From an uncultured bacterium (GTDB lineage: Bacteria > Acidobacteriota > JAQAZP01), in assembly GCA_965531145.1 (NCBI GenBank), contig CBESOE010000007.1:36-64035 (forward strand): a stretch of DNA of 64,000 nucleotides, given 5' to 3'. Made by a program: the position numbers and the translations under genes. The notes under the pieces were generated by a model that did not search any database, was not told where the DNA came from, and saw nothing but the letters and a program-made list of their open reading frames with translations. Positions 9,477 to 31,131 of the stretch are shown here, one piece after another (within the stretch, counting starts at the first letter, position 1; the number at the start of each line of letters is the position of its first letter).

Positions 9477-9501
9477 GGGGTTGTCACAACTGTAGCCCGT
9501 C

Positions 9502-15324: not shown

Positions 15325-15996
15325 ATGAACCAGCCCATCATCTCCCTGCAGCAGGTCTCGCGTGAATACCGCGAAATGCGGGTCACTGCTCTGGCGGGCC
15401 TGTCCCTCGACATCCATCGCCGGGAATACGTGGCCGTCCAGGGCCCCAGCGGCAGCGGCAAGTCCACCCTGCTGCACCTGATGTGCGGGTTGGACCGGCC
15501 CAGCAGCGGACGCGTTCTTTTTGAGGGCGTGGAGCCATGTTCCGCCGGCGAATGGACCAGGCTTCGCGCTGGCCGCATCGGTATTGTCTTCCAGGCCTTC
15601 CACCTCATTTTCTCCCTGACGGCAAGGGAGAATGTGGAGCTTCCCATGATCGGTGTGATCAGGGATTCCGCCGAGAGGCGGCGGCGTACCGCTGATGTGC
15701 TCGGACGCGTCGGGCTGGCGAAACGCGGGCACCACCGGGTCAACGAACTCTCCGGGGGTGAGCGGCAACGGGTGGCCATCGCCCGGAGCCTCGCCAATTC
15801 TCCGGACGTGATTCTTGCCGATGAACCCACAGGAAATCTCGACTCGCAGTCATCGGCGGTGGTGCTCGATCTGCTGCTCGATATCCACCGCAGCGAGCAG
15901 GCCACCCTTGTGGTGGTGACCCATGATGCGGACGTTTCCCGGCAGGCGAGCCGGGTGCTCCACATTCTCGACGGGCGGCTTCAATCAGCCGGGTAA
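15325..15996 (+). CDS. ABC transporter ATP-binding protein (LolD/MacB-type)
   Basis: Walker [13 protein letters not shown] signature LSGGERQRVAIAR. Walker B ILADEPTGNLD. Confidence 0.85.
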   Translation: MNQPIISLQQVSREYREMRVTALAGLSLDIHRREYVAVQGPSGSGKSTLLHLMCGLDRPSSGRVLFEGVEPCSAGEWTRLRAGRIGIVFQAFHLIFSLTARENVELPMIGVIRDSAERRRRTADVLGRVGLAKRGHHRVNELSGGERQRVAIARSLANSPDVILADEPTGNLDSQSSAVVLDLLLDIHRSEQATLVVVTHDADVSRQASRVLHILDGRLQSAG

Positions 15997-16014
15997 CGGA
16001 GGGCTTTTCCGCAC

Positions 16015-17136
16015 ATGCGCTTTCTGACAATGCCGATCCGCAACCTGCGGCGCCATCCGGCGCGTACCTACCTCACCTGCGCGATTATCGCGGCCGCGGT
16101 GGCCAGCTTCATCGCCCTGGTGGGCATTTCCCGCGGCCTGGAGCGCGCCTGGATCACCTCTCTGGAGGAGAAAGGCACCCACATCCTGGCGGTGCGCAAG
16201 GGGGCCATCGAGATTCTGACGGCTTCCATTGACGAAGCAGTTGCCGACACCCTGCGAAGCATCGACGGTGTTGCCGGGGTTTCGGGTGAGCTCCTGGACC
16301 TGGTGGAGCTGGAAACCGGCGATGTGGCGCTGCTCAGCGGCTGGCCCTCCGGCAGCTACTTCTGGCAATCACTCCATATCCTCGAAGGGAAACTCCCCGA
16401 TCCGGACGATGCGCGCGACGCCATTGTGGGGCAAACCCTGGCCGCGCAATTGGGCTGCAGCGTGAACGACACGATTCTGCTCCAGGGCCGGGAGTTTCGC
16501 ATCTGCGGGATTTCCCGTCATTCCAGTGTCATCTCCAACGGCAGCATCGTTCTCCCCCTGCCGGCCATGCAGGAGCTCATGGAGCGCACCGGCAAGGTGA
16601 CCAGCTTTAACATACGTGTGGACCACCCCGGCAACATGGCAGCGGTTTCCACGATCCGCGGCCGTCTCGCCGCCGCCTGTCCGGAACTCAGCTTCAACGA
16701 GACAGGGGAAATCGCGGAAAACAACCATGTGCTGCGTCTGCTGCGCGCCACCGCCTGGAGCACCTCATTCGTGGCGCTGGCCATGGCCCTCATCGTGGTG
16801 GTGAACACGCTGCTGATGACCATCACCGAAAGGACCTATGAGATCGGTGTGCTTTCGGCAGTGGGGTGGCGCTCCACCCGGATCATGGCCATGGTGGTCC
16901 TGGAAGGTTTGCTGATGGCGGCGCTGGGAACGCTCTGCGGGGCGCTGCTGGGGATCGGGACCCTGCACTGGCTGGTGGCGCGCCCGGAAGTTTACGGCCT
17001 GCTGGAACCGCGGGTCACCCCGGCGATGATTGTCGAAATCGCTGCCGCCGCGCTGCTGCTCGGTTTCCTCGGCAGTATCTATCCGGCCTGGCGTGCCGTA
17101 CGCCTCAATCCCGTGGAGGCCCTGAGGCGCGACTAG
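16015..17136 (+). CDS. ABC transporter permease, FtsX/MacB/LolE family (4-TM with periplasmic domain)
   Basis: N-terminal TM helix, a large periplasmic domain, then three C-terminal TM helices with an FtsX-type signature (LAMALIVVVNTLLMTITERTYEIGVL). Confidence 0.8.
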   Translation: MRFLTMPIRNLRRHPARTYLTCAIIAAAVASFIALVGISRGLERAWITSLEEKGTHILAVRKGAIEILTASIDEAVADTLRSIDGVAGVSGELLDLVELETGDVALLSGWPSGSYFWQSLHILEGKLPDPDDARDAIVGQTLAAQLGCSVNDTILLQGREFRICGISRHSSVISNGSIVLPLPAMQELMERTGKVTSFNIRVDHPGNMAAVSTIRGRLAAACPELSFNETGEIAENNHVLRLLRATAWSTSFVALAMALIVVVNTLLMTITERTYEIGVLSAVGWRSTRIMAMVVLEGLLMAALGTLCGALLGIGTLHWLVARPEVYGLLEPRVTPAMIVEIAAAALLLGFLGSIYPAWRAVRLNPVEALRRD

Positions 17137-18055
17137 ACCGGCGGAAGAACAGGCGCGGCAGGCCGGGCACCATGGAGATTCCGCAGCGGAAGGCGGTCTG
17201 GCCGATGTTGAACTTCCACCCGCCGCCGAGATCTCCGGAATCGTAGAAGCGCAGCGAGTCCTTCAAGTGGATCTCCCAGGCCTGCAGCAGCAGCCCGGGG
17301 ATTGTTCCCTCATGCCGTGGAAGCCTCCGGAGCGCATCATCGATGAGGTTCCGGTCGGTCTTCCGGATCAGCTTGAGCGATGCCAGGGTGGCCTGCCCGA
17401 GTTCGACATCCTCCTCCCGGTCATAGATGTCGTCGGCGATTTGTGAGGCGGCGCCGAAATCGTAGGCGGCCTGGCAGAGATCGGAACTCAGTTCGGGGTC
17501 CTCGCTGATGGAAAACAGGGCGAAGGATAGCCCTCCCTTGTCATAGGTCGAGGCCCGCAGCCGGTCTTCATCCACAGTTTCAACGGTGGCCTGCCGGAAA
17601 CAGTCCATGGTTGCCGTGCTGATCCCCTTGAACAGAGGCAGTGCCCTGGCCCAGCATCCGGGATTGAGCCGGCGGAAGACGTTCAGGGAATTCCTGGCGG
17701 CGCCGATGGCGTCTGGCCAGCCGTTGCGATCGGCCTCCCACGGGCCGGTATCCAGTACCCTGTCCAGGCGGGGCCAATCCCGGAAATGTTCCTCGTCCAC
17801 GGCATTGTCGTAGGCCGCAGCGATACAGGCCAGCAGGAACGCTGTCTCATAGTCCCGGCCCGGGCGGCCATACAGCACCTGGTGCCACGATTCGATTCCC
17901 ATCAGGTTGCCGATGACCTTGTTGCGGATCGCCGGGCGGGAAAAATAGCTGATCCCGCCATTGGCACCCAGAAGCGATTTCAGGAAATGCCGGTAATGGG
18001 ATTTGTGAAAGAGGATCCTCGAGAGCACGTACTTTGCAATGGGCAGTCGGGTCAT
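17105..18055 (-). CDS. Squalene/phytoene synthase-like (head-to-head isoprenoid synthase fold) protein
   Basis: GAASQIADDIYDREEDVELGQ resembles the second Asp-rich motif of squalene/phytoene synthases (G.A.Q..NI.RD..ED...GR). An upstream ETVDED is first-motif-like. The match is divergent. Confidence 0.4.
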   Translation of the reverse strand: MTRLPIAKYVLSRILFHKSHYRHFLKSLLGANGGISYFSRPAIRNKVIGNLMGIESWHQVLYGRPGRDYETAFLLACIAAAYDNAVDEEHFRDWPRLDRVLDTGPWEADRNGWPDAIGAARNSLNVFRRLNPGCWARALPLFKGISTATMDCFRQATVETVDEDRLRASTYDKGGLSFALFSISEDPELSSDLCQAAYDFGAASQIADDIYDREEDVELGQATLASLKLIRKTDRNLIDDALRRLPRHEGTIPGLLLQAWEIHLKDSLRFYDSGDLGGGWKFNIGQTAFRCGISMVPGLPRLFFRRSSRASGPPRD

Positions 18056-18074
18056 GTGGAACCGGTGAGTAGAC

Positions 18075-18875
18075 TCAGTTTCGTGAGAGGCCTTTGCCTG
18101 CTTCCTTCAGATTCGCCGAGGCCGTCAGGTCCCGGGGGCTGAAATTCCCCCTCGCCGGAACGGCAGCGGGACTGTCGCTGTGGAGCTTGAACCCCAGGAT
18201 GTAGCCCATGGCGCAGGGGTGGACAGCCCCGTAGAGGAATGCCCACGCCAACTCTTCCAACGGGACGCCGAAGCCGTGGTAACCGGTCAGGTTCTGGATG
18301 TTCCATTGCTGCAGCCAGTGGGGCCACAGGGTAAATCCAGCTTTTATCAGAATAAAATAGGCCAGCGAAAAGCTGATGGCCCCGACGGCCGAAGCGGGCC
18401 AGATGTCCTTCATGGGTTTCTTCAGCACCAGTGCGATGCCCAGCATGCCGAACAGTGCCGCCGCCATGACCGGCATCCCCATCTGGCGAAGAACCAGCAG
18501 GCCGGCGAGAAAAGGCAGGAAGACCAGTGCATACCGTCTCATCATCGACGGCAGGTTGATGGTCCAACTGTAAGACCCCCGGAAGGGGGCATAGGCCAGG
18601 GTGCAGGCGATGATCCCCACTGAAAAAGAAAACAGAATGTCTTCCACACCGATGATGAAGGTGCTGAGCCTCACCGGATGCCAGTAGTCCGGAACAAAGA
18701 AGATTTCCAGCACCGCCGCCGGGGCGGCCAGCACTCCGCAGAGCAGGGTGGGCTTGCGATGGTTGTCGACCAGGACCAGGCAGGTGAGGGCCGCACAAAA
18801 CAGCATCAGGCTGAAAAATAAATAGGGGTAAGTCTGCAGGAAATTCACAAACAGGTCTTTCGCAGAGGCAACCAC
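18075..18875 (-). CDS. Lycopene cyclase domain-containing membrane protein (CrtYcd-like, two repeats)
   Basis: Polytopic membrane protein with two copies of the h-P-x-E-E-h motif (GVEDILFSF; GVPLEELAWAF), typical of heterodimeric-type lycopene cyclase domains. Confidence 0.4.
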   Translation of the reverse strand: MVASAKDLFVNFLQTYPYLFFSLMLFCAALTCLVLVDNHRKPTLLCGVLAAPAAVLEIFFVPDYWHPVRLSTFIIGVEDILFSFSVGIIACTLAYAPFRGSYSWTINLPSMMRRYALVFLPFLAGLLVLRQMGMPVMAAALFGMLGIALVLKKPMKDIWPASAVGAISFSLAYFILIKAGFTLWPHWLQQWNIQNLTGYHGFGVPLEELAWAFLYGAVHPCAMGYILGFKLHSDSPAAVPARGNFSPRDLTASANLKEAGKGLSRN

Positions 18876-19026
18876 CGAGGTCTATCAGGATGTGGTACCA
18901 TAAAATACGTTCGCGCCCGCTTCCGGGGCCCCGCTTCCGGGGCCCGGCAAATCATTCTAGCCGATGGGGTGACGGGGTCGCAACAAAACGCGGTTCCCGA
19001 CTATCGTGCGGCTACCGAGGGAGGGA

Positions 19027-19902
19027 ATGAGCCAGATCCGTTGCCAGGCAATCGAGCCGCTGGACGGAACGGGGCCCACAGTGCTCACCGTGGACGTGGA
19101 GGAGTGGTTCCACGTCTGCGGCGTGCCGGGTCTCGAGGGCCCTGAGCAGTGGGCTTCGCTTCCGAGCCGGGTGGACGCCGACGTGGACCGGCTGTTGGAA
19201 CTCTTCCAGCGGTCCGGCGCCCGGGCCACCTTTTTCGTTCTGGGCTGGCTGGCTGAAACCCGGCCAGGCCTGGTGTCCCGCATCGCAGAGGCCGGTCACG
19301 AGATCGCCAGCCACGGCCACCTGCACCAGCCGGTGAACCTCCTGGATCCGGAGACGTTCGAGGAGGATCTCGTCCGCTCGCTGGCCGTGCTGCACACCCG
19401 GACCGGGGCGGTGGTATCGGGATACCGGGCGCCCATGTGGTCCATCGGGGTGGGAGCAACGCCCTGGGCCTTCGAGATCATGGCCCGGCACGGCATCACC
19501 AGGGATTCGAGCCTCATCCGCGCCCCGGTTATCGGGGAGCCGGGTCACCCGCGGGAGGCCTGCAAACTTCTCCTGGACACCGGGGGCTGCCTGCGGGAAT
19601 TCCCGCCGCTGGCCGGTCGGCTCTTCGGGGTGGACGGTGTCTTTCTCGGTGGGGCCTGGCCGCTGCGTCTCTTTGGTCCCCGCCGGGCGATACGGGCGGC
19701 CCGGAAACTGACCGCCCGCGGCCTGCCCGCGGTCTTTTTCCTCCACCCCTGGGAACTGGACCCCGACCCACCGCGTTTTCCCATGCCCCGGGCCCAGCGG
19801 TTCGTCCACTATGCCGGTCTGAAACGTGGCCGGAATGTGTGGGAAACCATGCTCCGCGAACTGCCGTTCGTTTCCCTCGGTGAGGCGGCCAGATCTGCTT
19901 GA
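19027..19902 (+). CDS. Polysaccharide deacetylase family protein of the XrtA/PEP-CTERM-associated type (DUF3473-like)
   Basis: VLTVDVEEWFHV N-terminus and an NodB-type His/Asp set (EIASHGHLH). Strong RBS GGAGGGA at 19014-19024 ahead of the ATG at 19027. The family assignment is recalled from the TIGR03006-like family. Confidence 0.65.
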   Translation: MSQIRCQAIEPLDGTGPTVLTVDVEEWFHVCGVPGLEGPEQWASLPSRVDADVDRLLELFQRSGARATFFVLGWLAETRPGLVSRIAEAGHEIASHGHLHQPVNLLDPETFEEDLVRSLAVLHTRTGAVVSGYRAPMWSIGVGATPWAFEIMARHGITRDSSLIRAPVIGEPGHPREACKLLLDTGGCLREFPPLAGRLFGVDGVFLGGAWPLRLFGPRRAIRAARKLTARGLPAVFFLHPWELDPDPPRFPMPRAQRFVHYAGLKRGRNVWETMLRELPFVSLGEAARSA

Positions 19903-19932
19903 CCGTTAAGACCTTGTGCCATAAGGGATTTC

Positions 19933-19961
19933 TTGACACTCCGCCGGGTGGAACCTACAAT
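19933..19961 (+). promoter_or_regulatory. Sigma-70-like promoter for the fab-like operon (-35 TTGACA, 17-nt spacer, -10 TACAAT)
   Basis: TTGACA at 19933-19938 and TACAAT at 19956-19961, lying 80 nt upstream of the fabD-like start. Confidence 0.45.
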
Positions 19962-20040
19962 GCCCGGTGGACCGAAACAGGATATCCGGGGTGTCCGGCG
20001 GGGCTCTCCCGGTGACGATTGGCAGGTCACAGGAGTGGCG

Positions 20041-20946
20041 ATGAGGGCTTTTTTTTTCCCCGGCCAGATGTCCGAACACCCGGAGATGTGGCACAACCTG
20101 AAGGGCCGGGTGCCCGGGGCCGAGATGTGGCTCCAGCGTGCTCAAACGGCCTCCGGTCTGCCGTTGGCCGATTCCCTGGGTCGGGGGAGCGCCAAAAACG
20201 TCGACGACCTCACCGCCCAGGTGGCGGTGCTGGCGGTCAACGCAGCCTATGCCGCCTACCTGCGCCTCCGTGGTGTGGAACCGGCGGCCGTGGCCGGGCA
20301 CAGCCTCGGTTGCTACTCCGCCCTTGAGGCGGCCGGTGTGCTCCGCTTCGAGGATGCGGTGGGCATCGCGGTCAAGGTGCAGCAACTGGCAGAGCACGAG
20401 CTTGCCGGGTTTGATGGGGCCATGGGCGTGCTGATCGGCCACGGGCCGGAGAAGGTTGACCATGCCTGCGCTGCCGCGGGGAACGACGAGGCCATGGTGG
20501 CCAACGTCAACACGGCGAAGCAAGTGGTGATCTCGGGGCACGCGGCGGCGGTTGATGCGGTGCTCGCGGCTCTGGCTGAAAACTCCATGCGGGCGGAACG
20601 GTTGCATACGCGGATCCCGTTTCACAGCCGCTGGATGCAGCCGGTGGTGGACCGGCTGCTGGTCGAGGTGGACCCGGCGCTGTTCAGCCAGCCGCGGCTG
20701 ACGGTCTATTCGCATCTTGACGGCAGCCGTGTGGACACAGCTGCCGCGGCGCACCGGCTGATCTGCACCCAGATTGCCCGGCCGCTCTACTGGCCCCGGG
20801 CGCTGGAAGCCATGCGGGACGGTGGCTGCCGCCGTTTTGTCGAGGTGGGGCCCGGCGAGGTGCTGAGCCGCATGACCCGCTGGGTACTGCGTGACGTCGA
20901 GGTACAGACGGCGGAGAAGAACTTTGAGGATTTGCTCGGGGGCTGA
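20041..20946 (+). CDS. fabD: Malonyl-CoA:ACP transacylase
   Basis: FFFPGQMSEHPEM N-terminus. Active-site GHSLGCYSALEAAG. RBS AGGAG upstream of the ATG at 20041. The ORF track starts earlier at 19933, which is probably spurious. Confidence 0.85.
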   Translation: MRAFFFPGQMSEHPEMWHNLKGRVPGAEMWLQRAQTASGLPLADSLGRGSAKNVDDLTAQVAVLAVNAAYAAYLRLRGVEPAAVAGHSLGCYSALEAAGVLRFEDAVGIAVKVQQLAEHELAGFDGAMGVLIGHGPEKVDHACAAAGNDEAMVANVNTAKQVVISGHAAAVDAVLAALAENSMRAERLHTRIPFHSRWMQPVVDRLLVEVDPALFSQPRLTVYSHLDGSRVDTAAAAHRLICTQIARPLYWPRALEAMRDGGCRRFVEVGPGEVLSRMTRWVLRDVEVQTAEKNFEDLLGG

Positions 20947-21011
20947 ACAGCTCCCGATAACGATGTATCGTGCGCGGCCGGCGGGCCGGCCCGAGAGGAG
21001 TGGATCACACG

Positions 21012-21284
21012 ATGAGCGAGGATGACAAGTCGCTTTCCCTGAAAATGAAGAACCTGATCGTCAACCGGCTGAAGCTGGAGATCGAACCCGAAGAGATCGA
21101 GAATGACCAGACCCTGTTCGGTGAAGGGCTGGGCCTCGATTCCATCGATGCCCTCGAACTGGTGCTTGGCCTGGAACAGGAGTTCGGGGTCAAGATCGAG
21201 GACGAGGAGGTGGGGGTCAAGGCCTTTGCCTCCATCGATGCCCTGGTCGCCTTTGTCAAGGAGAAGGGTGTTCAATCCGCATGA
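21012..21284 (+). CDS. acpP: Acyl carrier protein
   Basis: About 90 aa and acidic. Phosphopantetheine attachment motif GLDSIDALEL. RBS GAGGAG upstream. Confidence 0.85.
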   Translation: MSEDDKSLSLKMKNLIVNRLKLEIEPEEIENDQTLFGEGLGLDSIDALELVLGLEQEFGVKIEDEEVGVKAFASIDALVAFVKEKGVQSA

Positions 21285-21763
21285 GCACAACCACCGGCGA
21301 CCTGGAGATACTGGACGCTCTGCCCCACCGCAGCCCGTTCCTGATGGTCGACCGGATCGTGGAACGCCGCGGAGGACACTCCTGCCTGGCACTGAAAAGG
21401 GTTTCTTTCGGTGATCCCTTCCTCCGCATCGGTTCCGGGGTGGTGCCGCCGGAACTGAATCCCTTTTTTCTGGTGGAGGCCATGTCGCAGACCGCGGCCC
21501 TGGCCGCCGTGGACCCGGACAACGGTTCGGCCCTGCCTGCCGGTGCGGGGCCCGGGCCTCCGCTGGTGGGCTTCCTCGCAGCCATACGGAATTTTCGGAC
21601 CCTGCGGCCGGCGGTACCCGGCGATACACTGGAGATCCGGGCCGAGGTGGTGGGCCGCTTCGGCGGGCTGGTCAAGGTGGTGGGTACGGTGGAGGTGGAC
21701 GGTGAGCTGATCGGTGAAGCCGAGCTGACACTCAGCGTTCCCCGAGAGGTGGAGAACGGGTGA
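21281..21763 (+). CDS. Hotdog-fold 3-hydroxyacyl-ACP dehydratase (FabZ/FabA-like)
   Basis: LPHRSPFLMVDRIVE matches the FabZ N-terminal motif (LPHRYPFLLVD). 160 aa. Its start overlaps the ACP stop (ATGA). Confidence 0.7.
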   Translation: MSTTTGDLEILDALPHRSPFLMVDRIVERRGGHSCLALKRVSFGDPFLRIGSGVVPPELNPFFLVEAMSQTAALAAVDPDNGSALPAGAGPGPPLVGFLAAIRNFRTLRPAVPGDTLEIRAEVVGRFGGLVKVVGTVEVDGELIGEAELTLSVPREVENG

Positions 21764-23022
21764 CCAACGAGGTGACCAACGAGAAGACGGCAGTTGCTTC
21801 CCGCCGGGTGGTGATCACCGGGTTGGGGGCGGTTTCCGCGCTGGGCCCCGATGTGCCGTCCCTGCTTGCCGGGGTTGTGGAGGGCCGCTGCGGTATCCGG
21901 CCGGTGACCCTCTTCGACACCTCACCATTTCGCACACACACCGGTGGGGAACTGCTTGGATTTGATGCCGGGGCCCACTTCAGCCGGCGCGAACAGCGGC
22001 GGCTCTCCCGGGCCGACATGGCCGGGCTGGTGGCGGCCGCGGAAGCCCTGGGCGGCGCCCGGGCCGGCTCCGGGCCGATCTGCGATCCGGACCGGGTGGG
22101 CGTTATTCTCGGCGGCGGCGTTGGGGGGCTTTTCGACAGCGAGGCCTATTACCGCACAGTGCTGGGCCGGGGTTGGAAATCGGTGCCCGCCACCCGGGCC
22201 CTGGGACATTTCCCCTGCGCCACGGCCGACCGCATCGCCGAGCGCTGGGGCTTCGGCGGTCTGCGCACCACCGTGGTCACCGCCTGCTCGTCCAGCACGC
22301 TGGCCATCGGCCAGGCATTCGACGCCATCCGCACCGGGGCGGTGGAGATGGCGGTCACCGGCGGCAGCGATACCCTGAGCCGCCTGACCTACAGCGGGTT
22401 CAATTCCCTCCGCTCGGTGGACCCCGATGTCTGCCGGCCCTTCGACGCCGGCCGCAAGGGACTCTCCCTGGGCGAGGGGGCGGCCATCCTGGTCCTCGAG
22501 CCGCTGGACGTGGCCCTGGATCGCGGTGCCCCGATCCACGGGGAGGTGCTGGGCTGTGGCATGTCCTCGGACGCCCACCACATGACCGCACCGCACCCGC
22601 AGGGGGAGGGGGCAGCCCTGGCCATGGAGCGGGCCATCAGCCAGGCCGGGCTGGTTCCCGGGCAGGTGGACTACATCAATGCCCACGGCACCGGGACCCC
22701 GCACAACGACCTCGCCGAAACCAGGGCGATCCACCGCACCTTCGGCGAGAATGGGAAATCGATCCCGGTGAGCTCCACCAAGTCGATGCTGGGCCACTGT
22801 CTCGGTTCCGCCGGCGCCATGGAGGCCCTGGTCACCATCCTCGCCCTGCGGGACCGGTTCATTCCGCCCACGGCCAACCTGGAGCAGCCCGACCCGGAGT
22901 GCGACCTGGCCCATGTGCCACTGGTCAGCCGGCCGGGGACTCCCGAGGTGGGGATATCCAACTCCTTTGCTTTTGGCGGCAACAACGGCTGTCTGGTCCT
23001 GAGGAGATACCATGAGCTCTGA
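21760..23022 (+). CDS. fabF: Beta-ketoacyl-ACP synthase (KAS I/II type, catalytically complete)
   Basis: Active-site Cys in VVTACSSSTLAIG. His-His in NAHGTGTPHND and KSMLGHCLGSAG. GTG start overlapping the upstream stop (GTGA). Confidence 0.85.
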   Translation: MTNEVTNEKTAVASRRVVITGLGAVSALGPDVPSLLAGVVEGRCGIRPVTLFDTSPFRTHTGGELLGFDAGAHFSRREQRRLSRADMAGLVAAAEALGGARAGSGPICDPDRVGVILGGGVGGLFDSEAYYRTVLGRGWKSVPATRALGHFPCATADRIAERWGFGGLRTTVVTACSSSTLAIGQAFDAIRTGAVEMAVTGGSDTLSRLTYSGFNSLRSVDPDVCRPFDAGRKGLSLGEGAAILVLEPLDVALDRGAPIHGEVLGCGMSSDAHHMTAPHPQGEGAALAMERAISQAGLVPGQVDYINAHGTGTPHNDLAETRAIHRTFGENGKSIPVSSTKSMLGHCLGSAGAMEALVTILALRDRFIPPTANLEQPDPECDLAHVPLVSRPGTPEVGISNSFAFGGNNGCLVLRRYHEL

Positions 23023-24265
23023 GACCCGGCCGGCCGAAACTGGAGTGGTGGTTACCGGCATGTCCGCCGTGTCGCCCATGGGAACCGGCAGTGAGCCGCT
23101 GCTCCGGGGGCTCTGGTCGGGGGAAAACGCCTGGCGTCCGGTCCCGGAGGGGCCCCTGGCGGGGCAGCGGGCCCGGCTGGCGGCCCTGGTCCAGGACTTC
23201 GAACCACGGGCGCACATCCCGGTGATGAAACTGCGCCGGATGGACAACTGCACCCGGTTCTCGGTGGTGGCCGCCCAGCTGGCTTTCGAGCACGCCGGCC
23301 TGGCGGAGGAGGACCTCTCCTCCTGCGGGGTCGTCTTCGGCACCGGCACCGCCGGCTCCACCTCGGTGGCCGAGTATCTTCAGGGACTGCTGGTGGACTC
23401 GGCGGAGGGGCAGTTCCCCATGCTCTTTCCCAACACCGTGCCCAATGCACCGGCCGGCCAGGTGGCCATCCGTTTCGGCATCCGCGGGCCCAACGCCACG
23501 GTGAGTCAGCGGGAGAGTTCCGGCCTGCACGCCCTGGCCCGGGCCGCGGAGTTCATCCGTCTCGGCCGATGCCACTGCGTGCTGGTGGCCGGGGTGGACG
23601 AGTATTCCACCGAGTTGCTGGCCTTCTACGACCGGATGGGCTTTCTCTCCCCGGGCCGCTCCGGAGGTGAGGAGTCCTGCCGGCCCTTTTCCGCACGCCG
23701 CAACGGCTGGATGGTGGGGGAGGGGGCCTATGCCCTGGTGCTGGAATCGGCCGATCACGCCCACCGGCGTGGTGCGCCGCTGCTGGGCCGCCTCCTCGGC
23801 ACCGGTTGGAGCGGCAGCACCTGCTCCACCTACCGCTGGCCCGAGGAGCACGACGCCTATGTCCGCTGCATGGGGGGGGCGCTCCGCAGCAGCGGCCTGG
23901 ACGCCGGTGCGCTGGGGGCGGTGATGGCGTCGGCCAACGGCAACCAGGTGCTGGACCGGATGGAGGCCCTGGCCCTGGGCGAACTGTTCGCTGACGGCGG
24001 CGGTATGCCGCCGGTCACCGCGGTGAAATCAATACTTGGCGAGTCGGGAGCCTGCGGTGTGGCCCAGGCCCTGGCGGCGCTGGGTGTGCTGGAGCGGGGC
24101 ACGGTGCCCCCCACCACCGGCGGCGAGGCCGGTGACGCCGGCGGCCCGCAGGTGAACCTGGTGACCGGTGAGGCGCTGCACCCGCCACGGGCTCCCGAAG
24201 CGGTGCTGGTGAACAGTTTCGCGTCCGGCGGCAGCAATGTCAGTATGGTGATCGCCCGCGGGTGA
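23012..24265 (+). CDS. Ketosynthase-like protein lacking the catalytic triad (chain-length-factor / KS-beta-like)
   Basis: Thiolase fold of KAS length. Where the catalytic Cys should be, the sequence reads TVSQRESSG (Gln/Glu instead of Cys). The two His motifs are also absent (ANGNQ; ILGESGACG). Overlaps the KS stop by 11 nt. Confidence 0.7.
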   Translation: MSSETRPAETGVVVTGMSAVSPMGTGSEPLLRGLWSGENAWRPVPEGPLAGQRARLAALVQDFEPRAHIPVMKLRRMDNCTRFSVVAAQLAFEHAGLAEEDLSSCGVVFGTGTAGSTSVAEYLQGLLVDSAEGQFPMLFPNTVPNAPAGQVAIRFGIRGPNATVSQRESSGLHALARAAEFIRLGRCHCVLVAGVDEYSTELLAFYDRMGFLSPGRSGGEESCRPFSARRNGWMVGEGAYALVLESADHAHRRGAPLLGRLLGTGWSGSTCSTYRWPEEHDAYVRCMGGALRSSGLDAGALGAVMASANGNQVLDRMEALALGELFADGGGMPPVTAVKSILGESGACGVAQALAALGVLERGTVPPTTGGEAGDAGGPQVNLVTGEALHPPRAPEAVLVNSFASGGSNVSMVIARG

Positions 24266-24296
24266 ATGGCCGCACCGGCGGCGGCGGAGGAGAGCG

Positions 24297-24779
24297 GTGG
24301 GAACCGAGAACAGCCCCCTGGGACGGCGCAACGCGGATGGCTGGTGGGAACTGAGGCTCCGTGTCCGCTTCTCCGAGGTCGATTCTTACGGGGTGGTCTG
24401 GCACGGTCGCTACCTCGCCTGGTTCGAGGAGGCGCGCAACGACCTGGCCCGCGGCTACGGGTTTACCCCGTCGGTGCTGGCCCGGAGCGGATACCAGCTG
24501 CCGGTGCGGGATGTTTCCCTGACCTTCAAATCACCGGCCGGCCTCGACGACGAGGTGCTGGTGGGCATTCTCTTCCATCCCACGGAAACCGCACTGATCG
24601 AGTTTGAATACCGGGTGGTGGATGCGGAATCCGGGCGGCTGATGGTCACCGGTAAGACCCGGCAGGTGGTCACGCGGGTTGATCACGAATTGTTGCTGAC
24701 CTACCCCCGGCCGATCCGGGAGGCCCTGGACCGTCTCAGGCAGGACCAGTCCGCATCGGGGGGCAACCATGAGCGGTGA
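24297..24779 (+). CDS. 4HBT/YbgC-type hotdog acyl-CoA/acyl-ACP thioesterase
   Basis: RFSEVDSYGVVWHGRYLAWFEEAR is the YbgC/4HBT catalytic-region signature. 160 aa. Confidence 0.65.
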   Translation: MGTENSPLGRRNADGWWELRLRVRFSEVDSYGVVWHGRYLAWFEEARNDLARGYGFTPSVLARSGYQLPVRDVSLTFKSPAGLDDEVLVGILFHPTETALIEFEYRVVDAESGRLMVTGKTRQVVTRVDHELLLTYPRPIREALDRLRQDQSASGGNHER

Positions 24780-25728
24780 ACGGAACGGCGATGCAGACCG
24801 TGCCCGCGTCCGCCCGGTCTGTCCCTCCTGCCGCAATTCCCTGGCGGCGGAGAGTGACGGGCCTTCCACCTGTTCGTCCTGCGGCGCCGTCTATTCCCGC
24901 ATCCCCTCCGGCCATCTGCGGCTTCTGCCCGGGGATGCCGGTGGCTTTCGGGACTGGTGGCTCGACGATGAGCAGAAACGGGCCCGGTTCATGGGCCAGT
25001 ATGTTGAACGCGAGGAAGCGGGGGAGCGGCGGCTGGCCCGGGAGTTCCTGCTCCCCCTGACCCGGCAGCTGGCCGGCCAGGGGCCGCTGCGGCGGGTGCT
25101 CTCCGTGGGCTGCGGTTCCGGTGAGGATCTGGAACTGCTGCGTGGAGCCGGCCTGGACACCTGCGGTGTGGACAGCGGCGGGCGCACCCTGCGCTGGGGG
25201 GACAAGGAACGTTCTCCGGACCGTTACTTCATGGCCGACGCGCTGCAGCTGCCGTTCACCGACGGCGAATTTGACCTGGCCTATTCCCTCGGGGTCATCG
25301 AGCACGTGGGCACGGTGGGGGACAGCCTGGAACTGGCCGCGGATGCCGGTGAACTGCGCCGGCGGTTTGCCGCTTCGGTGGCCCGGGTGGTTCGGCCCGG
25401 GGGCTGGATCTTCATCAGTTGCCCCAATCGCACCTTTCCCTTTGACTTCGCCCACGGCGCCGGACGTTTCGGGTTCCGCTTTCACGGTCCCGGAGACTTC
25501 CTCCTTTCCTACGGTGACGTGAAGCGGCTGTTCATCGACCATGCGGGCTGCCAGTCGATCCGGCCGCTCTCCATGAAGGGCTATCTCGACCTGGCCCAGG
25601 CCGCTGCCGGCGGGGGGATGCTGATGCGGATGGCCGCGCCGCTCTTCGGCCTTTACTTGCATGCATTGCCGCGGCCTCTTTATACTTCTCCGCTATACCC
25701 GGCTGTATTGGCCCTTATCAAACGCTGA
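24769..25728 (+). CDS. Class I SAM-dependent methyltransferase with N-terminal Cys4 zinc-ribbon
   Basis: CPSCRN...CSSCG ribbon. Motif I VLSVGCGSGEDL. Methyltransf_11-like post-I region (ADALQLPFTDGEFDLAYS). Confidence 0.7.
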   Translation: MSGERNGDADRARVRPVCPSCRNSLAAESDGPSTCSSCGAVYSRIPSGHLRLLPGDAGGFRDWWLDDEQKRARFMGQYVEREEAGERRLAREFLLPLTRQLAGQGPLRRVLSVGCGSGEDLELLRGAGLDTCGVDSGGRTLRWGDKERSPDRYFMADALQLPFTDGEFDLAYSLGVIEHVGTVGDSLELAADAGELRRRFAASVARVVRPGGWIFISCPNRTFPFDFAHGAGRFGFRFHGPGDFLLSYGDVKRLFIDHAGCQSIRPLSMKGYLDLAQAAAGGGMLMRMAAPLFGLYLHALPRPLYTSPLYPAVLALIKR

Positions 25729-25742
25729 ACAGCGGAGCGACG

Positions 25743-26798
25743 ATGATCAAGCGAAACATCTGTGTGGTCACCTCCCACGTGCCGATGGTGTTCGGCGGGC
25801 ACCTGATCATCGCCCGTTCACTGGTCAGCGCCCTCAAGGACATGGGCTACAACTCGGATGTGATCTACACCCCCCAGAACCGTTTCGGGCGCCAGCTCTC
25901 GGCCTACCTGGCCAACCGGCTCACCGATGTGGGCCGTACCGGCGGCGACGAGGTGGTGGACCAGATCATCTCCCTGCGCTACCCCAGCTATGCGGTCAAG
26001 CACCCGCTCCACGTCTGCTGGCTGAACCACCGCATGCGCGAATACTACGATCTCTGGGAAGATTTCCTCGGGGTGATCCCCACCGGCAAGGGCAAACTCA
26101 AGGAGCGCTTCCGCCGCCGGCTGATCCAGCGGCTGGACAACCACCTGCTGAAGCGCAACGTGAAGAACCTCTACGTGATTTCGGGGACGATCAGGAAACG
26201 GCTGGAAACCTGGGGCGGGATCCCGGCCCAGGTGCTGCTGCCGCCGCCGCCCCTGGGCCGGGACTACCACACCGACAGTTACGAGAACTTCATCTTCACC
26301 GTGTCCCGCCTGCACAAGCTGAAGCGGATCAACCTGCTGCTGGACGCCTTCATGCTGGTGCGCGACACCGACGTCAAGTGCCTGATCGCCGGCGAGGGCG
26401 ACGAATACGACCGGCTGGCCAAGCGGATCAAGGACAACGATCTGGAGGGGCGGGCCATTCTCCTCGGCCGGGTGAGCGACCAGGAACTGGCCGACTACTA
26501 CGCCCGCTGCCGGGCGGTTTTCTTCGGGCCGCGGAACGAGGACTTCGGCTTCGTCACCATCGAGGCCTTCCGCAGCCGCAAGTGCGTCATCACCTGCCAT
26601 GACAGTGGCGGCCCGCTGGACCTGGTGGAAGACGGTGTTTCGGGTTTTATCACCCGGCCCGATCCCACCAGGATCGCCGAGCGGATCGACCAGCTGGTGG
26701 CCGATCCGGGCCTGGCCGAACGGATGGGCCAGGCGGGGTACGAGGCGAGTCTGCCGGTCACCTGGGAGAACGTGGTGCGGACACTGGTGAAGATATGA
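25743..26798 (+). CDS. Glycosyltransferase family 1 (GT4, GT-B fold)
   Basis: The C-terminal half carries the GT1 EX7E-type region (GFVTIEAFRSRKCVITCHDSGGPLDLVEDGVSGF). Confidence 0.75.
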   Translation: MIKRNICVVTSHVPMVFGGHLIIARSLVSALKDMGYNSDVIYTPQNRFGRQLSAYLANRLTDVGRTGGDEVVDQIISLRYPSYAVKHPLHVCWLNHRMREYYDLWEDFLGVIPTGKGKLKERFRRRLIQRLDNHLLKRNVKNLYVISGTIRKRLETWGGIPAQVLLPPPPLGRDYHTDSYENFIFTVSRLHKLKRINLLLDAFMLVRDTDVKCLIAGEGDEYDRLAKRIKDNDLEGRAILLGRVSDQELADYYARCRAVFFGPRNEDFGFVTIEAFRSRKCVITCHDSGGPLDLVEDGVSGFITRPDPTRIAERIDQLVADPGLAERMGQAGYEASLPVTWENVVRTLVKI

Positions 26799-27577
26799 TG
26801 ATCTCCGCGGGGCAACCGGCCCATCTCACGGTGGTGATCCCGGCCTACAACGAGGAGAAGCGGATCGGACCGACCCTGGAACGGATCTGCGGCTACCTGG
26901 AGAAGCGTTCCTATCCCTGGGAGATCGTGGTGGTCAATGACGGCAGCAGGGACGGGACGGTCCAGATCGCCAGGGAACTGCTGGCCGGCTGTGAACACCA
27001 CACGGTGATCGACCGCAAGTTCAACCGGGGCAAGGGCTACTCGGTGCGGCAGGGAATGCTGGCCGGCCGCGGGCGCTTCCTCCTCTTTTCCGACGCCGAT
27101 CTCTCCACGCCCATCGAGGACGTGGAGCGACTGCTGCCCCCCCTGGAGTCCAGGGAGGTGCAGGTGAGCATCGGTTCCCGGGCACTGCGTGACTCCCGGG
27201 TGGAGGTACACCAGCCCTGGTGGCGTGAGACCATGGGCAAGAGCTTCAACCTCTTCGTGCGGCTGATCGCCCTCGGCGGCCTCCACGACACCCAGTGCGG
27301 GTTCAAGTGCTTTACCCGCGAGGCGGCAAAGGCCATCTTCAGCGTGGCCCGCATCGACGGCTTCGGTTTTGACGTGGAAGCCCTGTACCTGGCCCGCAAG
27401 TTCGGCTACGGGGTCAAGGAGATCGGTGTGCGCTGGGTCAACTCGCCCGATTCGAAGGTCCACCCGCTCTCCGATTCGTCGCGGATGCTGGCCGATCTGC
27501 TGCGCATCCGTTTCACCGACCTCCGGGGAGGATACCGGTCCGGAAACGGCCTGGATCGCCGGGGGCGGCAAGGTTGA
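26795..27577 (+). CDS. Glycosyltransferase family 2 (polyprenyl-phosphate beta-glucosyltransferase-like)
   Basis: VVIPAYNEEKRI...VVVNDGSRDGT...FSDADLSTP are the GT-A signatures. Overlaps the GT1 stop (ATGA). Confidence 0.8.
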   Translation: MMISAGQPAHLTVVIPAYNEEKRIGPTLERICGYLEKRSYPWEIVVVNDGSRDGTVQIARELLAGCEHHTVIDRKFNRGKGYSVRQGMLAGRGRFLLFSDADLSTPIEDVERLLPPLESREVQVSIGSRALRDSRVEVHQPWWRETMGKSFNLFVRLIALGGLHDTQCGFKCFTREAAKAIFSVARIDGFGFDVEALYLARKFGYGVKEIGVRWVNSPDSKVHPLSDSSRMLADLLRIRFTDLRGGYRSGNGLDRRGRQG

Positions 27578-27605
27578 TGATTTCCGGGAAAGGGAGGATG
27601 GCACC

Positions 27606-29291
27606 ATGCTCAGATGCACGGGATCCGGCAACAACTCCTGGCGGCTGTTCTGTCTCCTGCTGACCGTCCTGCTGCCGGCCTGGGGCTGGCTTGCCGGCTG
27701 CGGTACCCCGCCCGCTGAACAACCGGCGGTGGAGGGCCCGGTGCGTGGCGGGACCATGGTGGTGGGCTGGACCAACGACGCCGACGCGCTGAACCCGGTG
27801 GTCCAGCAGACCATGCTCGCCTCCCACGTCGATACCCTGATCTATCCCAACCCCACCACCGAGGTCTTCGAGGACTGCCGCCTCACCGTACAGCCCCTGC
27901 TGGCCGAGAGCTGGACCTTCGGCGAGGACGGCCTGTCGCTGACCATGAAACTGCGCACGGACGTGACCTGGGATGACGGTACGCCGGTCACCGCGGACGA
28001 CGTGATCCTGACCAACCAGCTGATGGCCGATCCGGATTCGGCCAGCCCGCGTTTCAACCAGACCGAGCGCATCGCCGCGGTGGAGAAGATCGACCAGCAA
28101 ACGGTGCTCTTCCGTTTCACCGAGCCCTACGACCAGGAAACCCAGCTCTACCACGCATCCCAGGACCTGCTGCCGGCGCACCTCTTCCGCGATGCCGACC
28201 GGAAGAACCTGCGCCGCCACCCGCTTAACGAAAACCCGGTGGGCGCCGGACCCTACCGGCTGGAACGCTGGGAGCGCAACCAGGAACTGGTGCTTTCCGC
28301 CAATGCCGAAGCCACCCTCACCGACCCGCCCTACATCGAGCGGGTGGTTTTCCGTGTTATCCCCGAGTACACCACCCGTCTCACCGAGTTGATCGTCGGG
28401 CGGTTGGACGTGATGGACGGACTGCAGCCGGAGGATGTGGATCGGCTGAAGCGGGAAAACCCCGAGATCCGCATCCTGCCCCGGGGCTGGCGTTTCATGG
28501 AATACGTGGCCTGGAACAACCTCGACCCGCTTTTCTCCGACCCGCGGGTGCGTCGGGCGCTGACCATGTGCATCGACCGTGACCTGCTGATCCAGGTGCT
28601 GCTCACCGGTGGCGGGGAGTGCTTTGGCCGGCCCTGCACCGGTACCATAACCCCGGAGCTCTGCGGGGCCTGCAACGAAAATATCGAGCCGCTGCCCCAC
28701 GACCCGAAAGCGGCCCGGGCCATGCTCAACGACCTCGGTTGGAAGGACCGTGACGGCGATGGTGTGCTGGACAAGGACGGCCAGCCGTTCGCCTTCACCC
28801 TCAGGACCAGCGCCGGCAACCCGCGCCGCGAACAGGCCAGCGTATTGATCCAGGCCCAGCTCAGGGAAGCCGGCCTGGATGTGGAGCTGGAGCAGCTGGA
28901 GGGGGTGGTGTTGCACGAAAAGATGCGGAACAAGGACTTCCAGGCCGTGCTGAGCGGCTGGTCCGTGGGACTCTATGTCGAGCCGCGGTCCTTCTGGCAC
29001 AGTGGCGACGAGTATGTCTACAACTTCACCTCCTACAGCAATGCCTCGGTGGACCGGCTGATCGAGGCCGGGGAGGGGGAGACCGACATCGAGGCGGCCA
29101 ACGCCATCTGGCACGAGGTGCAGGAAATGATTTACGAAGATCAGCCTTACACCTTCCTCTACTGGGTGAACAATCTGATGGCGATCCACCAGCGGTTCGA
29201 AGGGGTGGAGGCCAACCTGCTCACTCCGCTCTACCACCTGGAGCGATGGTGGGAGAACCCCGACTGGGAGCGTGAGTTGGACGGCAGTTAG
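27606..29291 (+). CDS. ABC transporter substrate-binding lipoprotein, family 5 (Opp/Dpp/Nik-like)
   Basis: Lipoprotein signal LAGCGTPP. SBP_bac_5-like length and conserved stretches. RBS AAGGGAGGA before the ATG at 27606. The ORF track start at 27369 overlaps the GT2 gene and is rejected. Confidence 0.8.
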   Translation: MLRCTGSGNNSWRLFCLLLTVLLPAWGWLAGCGTPPAEQPAVEGPVRGGTMVVGWTNDADALNPVVQQTMLASHVDTLIYPNPTTEVFEDCRLTVQPLLAESWTFGEDGLSLTMKLRTDVTWDDGTPVTADDVILTNQLMADPDSASPRFNQTERIAAVEKIDQQTVLFRFTEPYDQETQLYHASQDLLPAHLFRDADRKNLRRHPLNENPVGAGPYRLERWERNQELVLSANAEATLTDPPYIERVVFRVIPEYTTRLTELIVGRLDVMDGLQPEDVDRLKRENPEIRILPRGWRFMEYVAWNNLDPLFSDPRVRRALTMCIDRDLLIQVLLTGGGECFGRPCTGTITPELCGACNENIEPLPHDPKAARAMLNDLGWKDRDGDGVLDKDGQPFAFTLRTSAGNPRREQASVLIQAQLREAGLDVELEQLEGVVLHEKMRNKDFQAVLSGWSVGLYVEPRSFWHSGDEYVYNFTSYSNASVDRLIEAGEGETDIEAANAIWHEVQEMIYEDQPYTFLYWVNNLMAIHQRFEGVEANLLTPLYHLERWWENPDWERELDGS

Positions 29292-29317
29292 GGCCCGGGT
29301 AACTTGACGGAGGACGG

Positions 29318-30286
29318 ATGGTCCGCTTCATCCTCAAGAGACTGCTCCATGCCGTGCCGATTCTGCTCGGTGTCTCGATCCTTCTCTTTTTTGTCCTGCA
29401 CCTCGCCCCCGGAGACCCGTCCAGCTACTACTTCAACCCCGACAGTTCACCGGAGACCCAGGCCCGGATGGCGAAGAACCTCGGGCTGGACCAGCCGTTG
29501 GGTGTGCAGTTCCTGCGCTGGATCTCGGCCTTTGCCCGCTTTGACTTTCAATACTCGCTGATCCACCACCGGCCGGTGACCGGGCTGATCCTCGAGGCGC
29601 TGCCCCGGACCCTGGTCCTCTCTTCCGCCGCACTGCTGCTGATGTTCGGCGGCGGTATCCTGCTGGGTGTGTTCTCCGCGGCCCGGCGCAACTCCCTGGC
29701 CGACCACGTGGTGAGCGTGGTTTCGCTCTTCTTCTACTCCATGCCTACCTTCTGGCTGGCCCTGATGCTGGTGCTGCTTTTTGCCCTGCTGCTGCCCATC
29801 ATGCCCCCGTCCGGCCTCAGTTCGCCCAATGCCGACCTCTTGCCGCCCCTGCAGCGGCTGCTGGACCGCTTGTGGCACCTGGTGCTGCCGGCGCTGACCC
29901 TTGGCCTCTCCGGCGCGGCGGGTATCGCCCGTTACGCCCGGGGCAGCCTGCTGGAGGTCGCCGGCCAGGACTACATCCGCACGGCCCGGGCCAAAGGCCT
30001 CTCCGAACGCCAGGTACTTTTCAAGCACTCGCTGCGCAACGGGCTGATCCCGGTGATCACCCTCTTCGGGCTCTCGCTGCCCTTCCTCTTCGGCGGCTCG
30101 GTGCTGGTGGAGTGGATCTTTGCCTGGCACGGCATGGGGTGGCTGATGGTCAGCGCCATCGGCCAGCGGGATTACCCCCTGGTCATCGGCTGTACCTTCT
30201 TCTACAGCCTGATCGTGGTGCTGGGAAACCTGGTGGCTGACCTGCTGTACCGCGCGGCCGACCCGCGGATCAGGAGGCAGTCATGA
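29318..30286 (+). CDS. ABC transporter permease (DppB/OppB-like)
   Basis: N-terminal MVRFILKRLL...GDP motif typical of DppB/OppB. Six TM helices. BPD_transp_1 EAA-like loop. Confidence 0.85.
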   Translation: MVRFILKRLLHAVPILLGVSILLFFVLHLAPGDPSSYYFNPDSSPETQARMAKNLGLDQPLGVQFLRWISAFARFDFQYSLIHHRPVTGLILEALPRTLVLSSAALLLMFGGGILLGVFSAARRNSLADHVVSVVSLFFYSMPTFWLALMLVLLFALLLPIMPPSGLSSPNADLLPPLQRLLDRLWHLVLPALTLGLSGAAGIARYARGSLLEVAGQDYIRTARAKGLSERQVLFKHSLRNGLIPVITLFGLSLPFLFGGSVLVEWIFAWHGMGWLMVSAIGQRDYPLVIGCTFFYSLIVVLGNLVADLLYRAADPRIRRQS

Positions 30287-31131
30287 ACGGCCCATTTGCC
30301 CGGTTCAGGCAAAATCGAGTGGCCCTGGCCGGGCTGTGCCTGATCGTCACTATGTATCTCGCTGCGCTGATGGCCCCGGTGCTGGCGCCCTACGCCCCCG
30401 ACGAATCCATCGACCTGCTCAGCAACCGGAACTCGGCCCCTTCGGGCAGGCACATCCTGGGCACCGACCGCTACGCCCGGGACATCTTCAGCCGGCTGCT
30501 CTACGGTGCGCGGATCTCGCTCACCGTGGGGCTGGCGGCGGTGGGCCTCTCGCTGGTCATCGGTACCCTGGTGGGGCTGCTGGCCGGCCAGTTCGGCGGC
30601 TGGGTGGACAGCCTGCTGATGCGCCTGGTGGACCTGCTGATCTCCTTCCCCCGGCTGGTGCTGCTGCTGGCCGTGGCGGCGTTCTTCAATCGTTCGATCC
30701 TGCTGATCATGGTTCTGCTGGGCCTCACCGGCTGGATGACCACCGCCCGGGTGATCCGCGGCGAGATCCTCGCCCTGCGCGAGCGGGAGTTCGTCCTCGC
30801 CGCCGGCGCCCTGGGCGCTTCACCGTTCCGGGTGGCCTTCCGCCACCTGCTGCCAAACTGCCTGGCGCCGCTGGTGGTCACCGCCACTCTGGGCCTGGGC
30901 CAGACCATCCTGGTGGAGGCGGGACTCAGCTTCCTTGGCCTGGGCGTGCCGCCGCCCACCGCCAGCTGGGGGGCGATGGTCAACGAGGGGCGGCACCTGC
31001 TGCTGGAAGCGCCCTGGATCACCACCTTCCCCGGTCTGGCCATCGTTGGGGCCGTGCTCTGCTTCAACCTGGTGGGCGACGCCCTGCGGGATGCCTTCGA
31101 TCCCCGCCTGGACGGGGTGAAGGAGGGATAG
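30283..31131 (+). CDS. ABC transporter permease (DppC/OppC-like)
   Basis: OppC-type N-terminal domain and a BPD_transp_1 region (LGASPFRVAFRHLLPN). Overlaps the upstream stop (ATGA). Confidence 0.85.
   Translation: MNGPFARFRQNRVALAGLCLIVTMYLAALMAPVLAPYAPDESIDLLSNRNSAPSGRHILGTDRYARDIFSRLLYGARISLTVGLAAVGLSLVIGTLVGLLAGQFGGWVDSLLMRLVDLLISFPRLVLLLAVAAFFNRSILLIMVLLGLTGWMTTARVIRGEILALREREFVLAAGALGASPFRVAFRHLLPNCLAPLVVTATLGLGQTILVEAGLSFLGLGVPPPTASWGAMVNEGRHLLLEAPWITTFPGLAIVGAVLCFNLVGDALRDAFDPRLDGVKEG

Follow-up and report, generated by a model that had tools for sequence, protein, structure and literature searches.

We find that a 64,000-nt stretch of DNA from an uncultured bacterium of the Acidobacteriota (GTDB lineage JAQAZP01; assembly GCA_965531145.1, contig CBESOE010000007.1, positions 36 to 64,035 of the forward strand; hereafter the window) encodes two adjacent FabF-like ketosynthases (KSs), of which the first, KS1, is by its sequence an active enzyme and the second, KS2, has lost the catalytic triad. 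KS2 is predicted to be the inactive, chain-length factor (CLF)-like subunit of a heterodimeric KS in which KS1 would hold the only active site, a reading to which we assign a probability of roughly 0.8 from sequence comparison and from analogy with characterised pairs. An initial annotation, made from the letters of the DNA alone, had already taken KS2 for a non-condensing KS paralogue. This assignment stands, as the triad columns of KS2 hold Glu168, Ser307 and Glu344. A role as inactive partner is likewise borne out as the most probable one, given the homology to a heterodimer from anammox bacteria, the existence of natural fusions between the two kinds of protein, and a gene overlap that is conserved in orthologues.

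Three alignments agree in placing Glu168 in the column of the catalytic Cys: phmmer alignments to Thermus and Escherichia coli FabF, a C163Q mutant among them; a MAFFT alignment of KS2 with 80 database homologues; and the alignment of the family profile to Protein Data Bank (PDB) entries. The initial annotation had read 'Gln/Glu' at this position and likened it to the glutamine of CLFs. Because all three alignments put Glu168 in register, the reading narrows to Glu. Gln166 precedes Glu168 by two residues and sits in the loop ahead of the helix that begins at residue 167 of our structural model; it is out of register with the Cys and varies within the family (Q/H/Y/E), and with it the proposed likeness to the CLF glutamine falls away. 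The claimed loss of both catalytic His residues, by comparison, is confirmed by the columns of Ser307 and Glu344 (codon 24041–24043), and none of the alignments places an intact Cys-His-His triad in KS2. In addition, Ser405 stands for the gating Phe of the FGG motif, and Lys339, Asp315 and Glu318 are retained. All strings quoted in the initial annotation are found where it had put them, namely VVTACSSSTLAIG, INAHGTGT and MLGHCLG in the translation of KS1, and NATVSQRESSGLHALARA, ANGNQ and ILGESGACG in that of KS2. Both the N- and the C-terminal ketoacyl-synthase domain of Pfam are detected in each protein.

KS2 is being maintained, with a specific set of substitutions that is itself conserved, and is no case of chance degeneration, as can be seen from its low ratio of nonsynonymous to synonymous substitution rates (dN/dS), its confidently predicted fold and the conservation of the substituted residues. 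Its frame runs for 417 codons plus a stop without internal stop codons, and KS1 and KS2 both display the bias in third-position G+C (GC3) of real genes, in a window of ~65% G+C. Measured against two orthologous loci with 84% (L003) and 79–81% (L004) amino-acid identity, dN/dS is 0.26–0.30 for KS2 and 0.20–0.29 for KS1. We aligned 29 proteins with Glu in the Cys column, whose pairwise identity ranges from 27 to 87% (median 37%). Only 27 positions are invariant in this clade, including R75, R76, F139, V143, E168, S170, N309, D315, E318, K339, G343 and E344, and 10 of them fall among the 27 positions of the old active-site motifs (Fisher p ~9e-7). An AlphaFold2 monomer model of KS2, built with 17 homologues, reached a predicted local distance difference test score of 84.8 and a predicted template-modelling (TM) score of 0.88, and resembles E. 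coli FabF at a TM score of ~0.88. The sole poorly predicted internal stretch, residues 133–144, lies in the helix-loop-helix region.

The two genes overlap by 11 nt, with the KS2 start codon inside the 3′ end of KS1 and a GAGGAG Shine-Dalgarno motif 5 nt upstream of it. This junction, ATGA.C.CTGA, is kept at four orthologous loci (L001, L003, L004 and L010), and at a more distant locus (L008) the KS and partner genes overlap by 4 nt. Translational coupling is common among KS-CLF pairs (PMC9006962), and an 11-nt overlap with an internal ribosome-binding site (RBS) fits coupling of KS1 and KS2. The overlap reported in the initial annotation is real; its further claim, that the overlap implies 1:1 co-translation, goes too far, since overlap and RBS fit coupling and are insufficient on their own to establish that ratio.

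The top PDB matches of both proteins lie in one entry: KS1 best matches 9s5h_B (328.6 bits) and the KS2-family profile 9s5h_C (313.8 bits). The entry is labelled '3-oxoacyl-ACP synthase' only (ACP, acyl carrier protein). Chain C is 90–91% identical to proteins of Brocadia/Brocadiaceae and conserved in Jettenia and Scalindua, and chain B fits the residues Cys165, His298, His335 and Phe394 of Brocadia fulgida amxFabF2 at a constant offset of +5. By identity and residue numbering, chains B and C of 9s5h/9s5i appear to be the anammox amxFabF2/amxFabFmut heterodimer; the accession 9s5h does not occur in the text of the preprint describing that pair (bioRxiv 10.64898/2026.05.19.726425, May 2026). 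A Foldseek search of the PDB with our KS2 model returned FabFs alone among the 50 matches listed, and 9s5h was not among them. According to the preprint, amxFabF2 and amxFabFmut co-purify and neither is active alone; the heterodimer decarboxylates malonyl-ACP and forms acetoacetyl-ACP; and its crystal structure is that of a KS/CLF-like heterodimer. A helix-loop-helix of amxFabFmut (residues 110–140) is disordered without the partner, and its residues F135, T138 and V139 form part of the lining of the active subunit's acyl tunnel (10.64898/2026.05.19.726425).

The resemblance to KS1 and KS2 extends from gene content to single residues. In both systems, the genes for an active FabF-like KS and a full-length mutated partner stand side by side, accompanied by those for a FabZ-like dehydratase and a dedicated ACP. 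F139, T142 and V143 of KS2 align with the tunnel-lining F135, T138 and V139 of amxFabFmut; the PM(D/L)FPNTV tunnel motif, the replacement of the second catalytic His by Glu and the retained Lys are common to both mutated subunits; and the weakly predicted stretch of KS2 falls in the segment that is disordered in partner-less amxFabFmut. The systems also differ. The Cys column holds Val or Thr in the anammox subunit and Glu in KS2, and the column of the first His holds Asn there and Ser here. The mutant-subunit gene lies upstream in anammox bacteria, whereas KS2 lies downstream of KS1. B12-radical-S-adenosylmethionine (SAM) and phytoene-desaturase-like genes accompany the anammox pair, and neither was found by Pfam and NCBIfam scans of the window's open reading frames (ORFs) between ~1.7 and 49 kb. 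The hosts, finally, are Brocadiales in one case and Acidobacteriota in the other.

How far does this arrangement reach beyond the window? Its relatives are metagenome-assembled genomes (MAGs) of Acidobacteriota with 84% and 79% identity and, at 40%, a Vicinamibacterales MAG. A database search with KS2 yielded a tight orthologue group of 69–100% identity, followed by a drop to 40% or less; a look-up of the exact KS2 sequence matched no recorded contig. The orthologues lie in syntenic clusters, with the whole operon arrangement preserved down to 70% identity, and the clade itself is conserved down to 27%. Scanning a genome collection with a 7-sequence alignment gave three loci. A profile search of 1.84 billion representatives, in which giant modular polyketide synthases (PKSs) dominate through their summed KS domains and which is no measure of family size, added five clade members as well as KS-CLF fusions. 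Proteins of the KS2 type are currently named 'beta-ketoacyl-ACP synthase II' and score below all NCBIfam cut-offs.

In a neighbour-joining (NJ) tree, proteins with the intact Cys, His, Lys and His set (C/H/K/H) lie on one side and the degenerate-triad proteins form one superclade on the other, within which those with Glu in the Cys column make up a single clade. The neighbours of this Glu clade carry Q, Y, H, W, L, T or V at the Cys position, most of them with the second His likewise changed to Glu. KS1 clusters in the tree with amxFabF2 and the N-terminal portions of KS-CLF fusions, apart from the other C/H/K/H FabF-like proteins. Eleven such single-chain fusions of 784–834 aa were found (P0116, P0131, P0136, P0138, P0173, P0177, P0190, P0193, P0195, P0200 and P0217), each with C/H/K/H in its N-terminal half, while the C-terminal half is degenerate and highly varied at the triad columns. 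They provide a Rosetta-stone argument for pairing in the broader family, one that is not specific to the Glu clade. At every locus where a partner was called, an active KS adjoins the Glu-clade gene or lies near it.

Judged by their gene content, the distant Glu-clade loci look like aryl-polyene-like lipid clusters. One (L009, 1004–10091) encodes LolA, a ketoreductase (KR), an ACP, a DUF3473 deacetylase, a PHP-domain protein and a KS; another (L006) a lipid-A-type acyltransferase, an AMP ligase, a B12-radical-SAM protein, a GT2 glycosyltransferase, an ACP, an ApeP-like dehydratase and a KS; and a third (L008, 3616–8112) two halogenase-like flavoproteins, an AMP ligase, an ACP, a KS, a GT2 enzyme and a CDP-alcohol phosphatidyltransferase. 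Recurring genes are those for the DUF3473 deacetylase (window and L009), the PHP domain (L006 and L009) and GT2 (window, L006 and L008). At the Vicinamibacterales locus (L005, ~7900–9900), the partner KS gene preceding the KS2 homologue of 40% identity seems, in the raw ORF list, to be divided between two reading frames, which may reflect an assembly frameshift or a degraded gene.

Several observations weigh against a KS1-KS2 heterodimer or give it no clear support. Identity to the anammox pair is modest (39% for KS1/amxFabF2, 28% for KS2/amxFabFmut); because of this low identity and the separate clade in the NJ tree, KS2 is to be seen as a relative of amxFabFmut and not as its orthologue. The tree itself was built without bootstrap support. 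Moreover, the KS and CLF genes of L009 lie several kb apart, and in L006 a gene for a low-molecular-weight phosphatase (9531–10004) stands between them. Net charge in the presumed interface segments, counted from sequence, is KS-positive/CLF-negative in most Glu-clade pairs and 0/0 for the L006 helix, and this count fails to reproduce the polarity that the preprint reports for the anammox pair. Lastly, the substituted residues are conserved beyond the needs of a merely dead pocket, which leaves room for an added function.

What could such a function be? The KS2 pocket may have been repurposed, so that the acidic pair Glu168/Glu344 together with Lys339 and Asn309, in a pocket that is no longer gated (Phe to Ser), forms a new catalytic or ligand site: a metal or cation site, a general acid/base, or an electrostatic filter against malonyl- or acyl-ACP. 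By analogy with the 'cyclisation factor' AmcG, a KS partner that sets a precedent in being proposed to carry a new role, such a site might isomerise, cyclise or hydrolyse an ACP-bound intermediate. E168, N309, D315, E318, K339 and E344 are indeed invariant across the full identity range of the clade, and the old active-site motifs hold the share of invariant positions given above. The gating Phe has given way to a small Ser, Thr or Ala, and in FabF the F400A substitution makes the pocket more accessible. Besides, the anammox mutant subunit keeps an open tunnel to its dead triad (10.64898/2026.05.19.726425), and the cluster is devoid of a KR and an enoyl reductase (ER) among the scanned ORFs. 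We nevertheless consider a new site unlikely. Lys339, Asp315 and Glu318 are conserved across all KS-fold proteins for structural reasons, and a Ser307-Lys339 catalytic dyad is excluded, since position 307 varies (S/A/G/T): several members, the 79%-identical orthologue included, have A, G or T there. The exchange of the second His for Glu is common to many unrelated CLF-like lineages, amxFabFmut among them, and its wide occurrence suggests a generic structural solution. Nor is any inactive KS partner known with demonstrated activity at its own pocket, and the tunnel of the anammox subunit was judged non-catalytic (10.64898/2026.05.19.726425). If a new site did exist, the clade would constitute a mechanistically distinct class of KS partners, comparable to the step from CLF to AmcG.

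We regard it as quite improbable, more so than a repurposed pocket, that KS2 is a KSQ-like malonyl-ACP decarboxylase making the acetyl primer, a role put forward for KSQ loading domains and for the Gln of CLFs in aromatic PKSs, to which the initial annotation had drawn its analogy. A FabF with Gln in place of Cys does become a malonyl decarboxylase (PMC9006962), the cluster encodes a malonyl-CoA:ACP acyltransferase (MAT) and no FabH-like primer KS, and the anammox heterodimer decarboxylates malonyl-ACP. However, KSQ proteins change Cys to Gln and keep both His residues, whereas the KS2 columns read Glu, Ser and Glu: the only nearby Gln is the variable Gln166, both His needed for decarboxylation are absent, and the second carboxylate, E344, would repel that of malonyl. 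The preprint treats the intact-triad amxFabF2 as the decarboxylating subunit, amxFabFmut being inactive alone (10.64898/2026.05.19.726425). The loss of three catalytic residues along with the gating Phe could also mark a decaying duplicate without function, on its way to becoming a pseudogene. This is effectively refuted by the data on selection and conservation: the frame is intact, dN/dS is similar to that of KS1, RBS and overlap are conserved, the fold is confidently predicted, and both the synteny of the orthologues and the conservation of the clade extend over the identity ranges given above. The initial annotation, which had found a pseudogene unsupported on the strength of the frame, was right in this respect.

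The preferred reading, an inactive CLF-like partner of KS1, can also be set against other known systems. As in KS/CLF pairs in general, KS2 has a KS (thiolase) fold without the triad, and its gene stands beside that of an intact-triad KS, the latter coming first. Membership among the CLFs of aromatic type II PKSs, as the initial annotation suggested, is not supported: the KS2-family profile scores 231 bits against the actinorhodin CLF (ActI-ORF2, 1tqy_B) versus ~300 for FabFs and 314 for 9s5h_C, and Glu168 takes the place of the hallmark Gln. These scores, together with a cluster that encodes no cyclases or aromatases among the scanned ORFs, put KS2 outside the aromatic CLF clade. Aromatic CLFs are likewise inactive KS paralogues encoded downstream of the KS, frequently with translational coupling, and they shape the tunnel at the interface (PMC9006962), a role predicted for KS2 too. 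The ishigamide Iga11-Iga12 pair (6kxd), from a highly reducing (polyene) type II PKS, is a KS/CLF heterodimer that, with a dehydratase, leads to reduced or unsaturated chains; the broad superclade of degenerate-triad proteins that holds KS2 also takes in relatives of Iga12 from actinobacteria. Iga12 itself differs in being shorter (378 aa), in having Arg where the Cys would be and Asp in place of the second His, and in belonging to a separate clade. NCBIfam matches prompted us to consider membership in the cispentacin AmcF/AmcG family, which we rejected because the matches fall far short of the cut-offs and AmcG is devoid of KS motifs.

Similarly, aryl polyene (APE) systems pair a discrete KS with an inactive partner (ApeO-ApeC). 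They have in common with the window operon an ApeP-like dehydratase and an ACP near NCBIfam PRK09184, and one distant clade member (L009) lies in a locus with LolA and a KR. The thioesterase, methyltransferase and GT2 enzyme of the operon presumably match the roles of ApeK, ApeB and ApeJ. The end product of APE synthesis is a sugar-phosphate-glycerol lipid. In contrast, ApeC is half the size of a KS (PMC8358021), while KS2 comprises 417 aa and both thiolase halves, and KS1 scores 183 bits with ApeO (6qsp_A), far below FabF or amxFabF2. The APE core consists of the KSs apeO/apeR, ACPs, a CLF, the dehydratases apeI/apeP, the KR apeQ and the transporter apeM (bioRxiv 10.1101/2020.12.19.423268). 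The window, by comparison, holds one KS, one ACP, one ApeP-like dehydratase and the CLF-like partner; its scanned ORFs include no KR, second KS, MMPL transporter or aryl-activating ligase.

How might the two subunits work together? KS1 and KS2 would be made by coupled translation and dimerise via a FabF-type helix-loop-helix interface, KS1 performing both transacylation and decarboxylative condensation. F139 and V143 of KS2 would form part of the wall of the KS1 acyl tunnel and thereby help to set the accepted chain lengths. The basic patch R75/R76 of KS2 may serve as docking site for the cognate ACP that delivers substrate to KS1: its counterparts in E. coli FabF, R68/K69, belong to ACP-docking region 1 of the FabF-AcpP interface (PMC7138838), and a review describes the non-catalytic subunit, or the CLF, as the main site of ACP docking (PMC9006962). 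KS2 would probably also stabilise and activate KS1. E168, K339 and E344 are most simply seen as a charged plug in a vestigial pocket, which may in addition turn malonyl- or acyl-ACP away from the wrong site. Together with the MAT, the ACP, the FabZ/ApeP-like dehydratase and the thioesterase, the KS pair would build an acyl or polyene-like chain, with ketoreduction borrowed from the FabG of housekeeping fatty-acid synthesis. The thioesterase may help to release or transfer the chain, and deacetylase, methyltransferase and glycosyltransferases would incorporate it into a glycolipid.

The surrounding genes (Table 1) form an operon (19006–27577) that encodes a dehydratase but neither a KR nor an ER. 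The LGLDSI motif of the ACP carries the phosphopantetheine-attachment serine, and an orthologue of the dehydratase is annotated as PF22817, ApeP-like. Pfam and NCBIfam scans of the ORFs between ~1.7 and 49 kb gave no KR, ER, cyclase, aromatase, C-9 ketoreductase, aryl-activating ligase, LolA or MMPL protein, and neither a second KS of the ApeR type nor a FabH-like primer KS. Without KR and ER, reduced or unsaturated chains would depend on primary metabolism for FabG and perhaps also FabI; borrowing of this kind (crosstalk) has been reported for cispentacin. The methyltransferase (24769–25728) has weak NCBIfam matches to the DVU_1556 family (8.8e-11) and to BioC (1.4e-6), both far below the cut-offs; a BioC-like capping of the malonyl primer would change the predicted chemistry.

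Directly after the GT2 gene, 27369–31131 encodes an SBP_bac_5 solute-binding protein and two Opp/Dpp-type permeases, which may share a transcription unit with the lipid genes, as they are syntenic in relatives (L001 and L010). Between an upstream GT2 gene (14634–15311) and the deacetylase lie an ATP-binding cassette (ABC) ATPase (15325–15996), an FtsX/MacB-type permease (16015–17136) and two minus-strand genes, one without a family match (17105–18055) and one with a weak match to a lycopene-cyclase domain (18075–18875). In L010 the deacetylase follows directly after GT2, and in L001 a NosD/beta-helix gene fills this slot; these differences mark 15325–18875 as a variable insertion point in an otherwise syntenic region. 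Two large genes appear unrelated: one (1681–5106, minus strand) encodes a 1141-aa protein in which Reg_prop/Y_Y_Y propeller repeats are joined to a SpoIIE (PP2C) phosphatase, and the other (38266–41652, plus strand) a 1128-aa protein with FG-GAP and sortilin-like repeats.

Table 1. Positions of the KS pair, of its diagnostic sites and of the neighbouring operon genes in the window
Feature	Position	Strand	Remarks
Polysaccharide deacetylase, DUF3473 domain (XrtA-type)	19006..19902	+	family scans
FabD-like malonyl-CoA:ACP acyltransferase (MAT)	19933..20946	+	family scans
ACP	20970..21284	+	Pfam PP-binding; NCBIfam PRK09184, 67 bits; likely start ATG 21012
FabZ/ApeP-like 3-hydroxyacyl-ACP dehydratase	21281..21763	+	His16 (PHRSPF) and Glu66 motifs present
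KS1	21760..23022	+	420 residues; intact C176/H309/K341/H346 and gating Phe of the AFGG motif
Coupling junction	23001..23022	+	GAGGAG RBS 23001-23006; KS2 ATG 23012-23014; KS1 TGA 23020-23022
KS2	23012..24265	+	full-length FabF-fold protein; degenerate triad E168/S307/K339/E344
R75, R76 codons	23234..23239	+	align with E. coli FabF R68/K69 (ACP-docking region 1); invariant
F139-P-N-T-V143 motif	23426..23440	+	helix-loop-helix interface region; aligned to 9s5h_C; F139 and V143 invariant
Glu168 codon	23513..23515	+	catalytic-Cys column; invariant in 29/29 clade members
Ser307 codon	23930..23932	+	first catalytic-His column; S/A/G/T in the clade
Lys339-Glu344 codons	24026..24043	+	Lys339 is the retained KS lysine; K339, G343 and E344 invariant
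4HBT thioesterase (YbgC/FadM-type)	24297..24779	+	family scans
SAM-dependent methyltransferase	24769..25728	+	family scans
Group-1 (GT4-type) glycosyltransferase	25743..26798	+	family scans
GT2 glycosyltransferase	26795..27577	+	family scans

Heterodimeric KSs in which one partner is inactive set chain length at the core of type II polyketide and aryl-polyene systems, and a ladderane-associated system of anammox bacteria was recently found to use such a pair as well. Inactive KS partners are thus already known, an analogous FabF-type heterodimer has just been characterised (10.64898/2026.05.19.726425), and KS-CLF pairs have been catalogued in Acidobacteria at survey level. The new element is a small one: a monophyletic clade of full-length partners with the E-x-K-E pattern, so far without a name, found in conserved operons of the glycolipid type in Acidobacteriota and in other, little-studied lineages. 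Our general understanding of KS-CLF systems is unchanged by KS2. For annotation and genome mining, however, the E-x-K-E signature in combination with the FPNTV motif would flag such partners, and the invariant acidic pair represents a concrete target for mutagenesis to address whether 'dead' KS pockets do anything.

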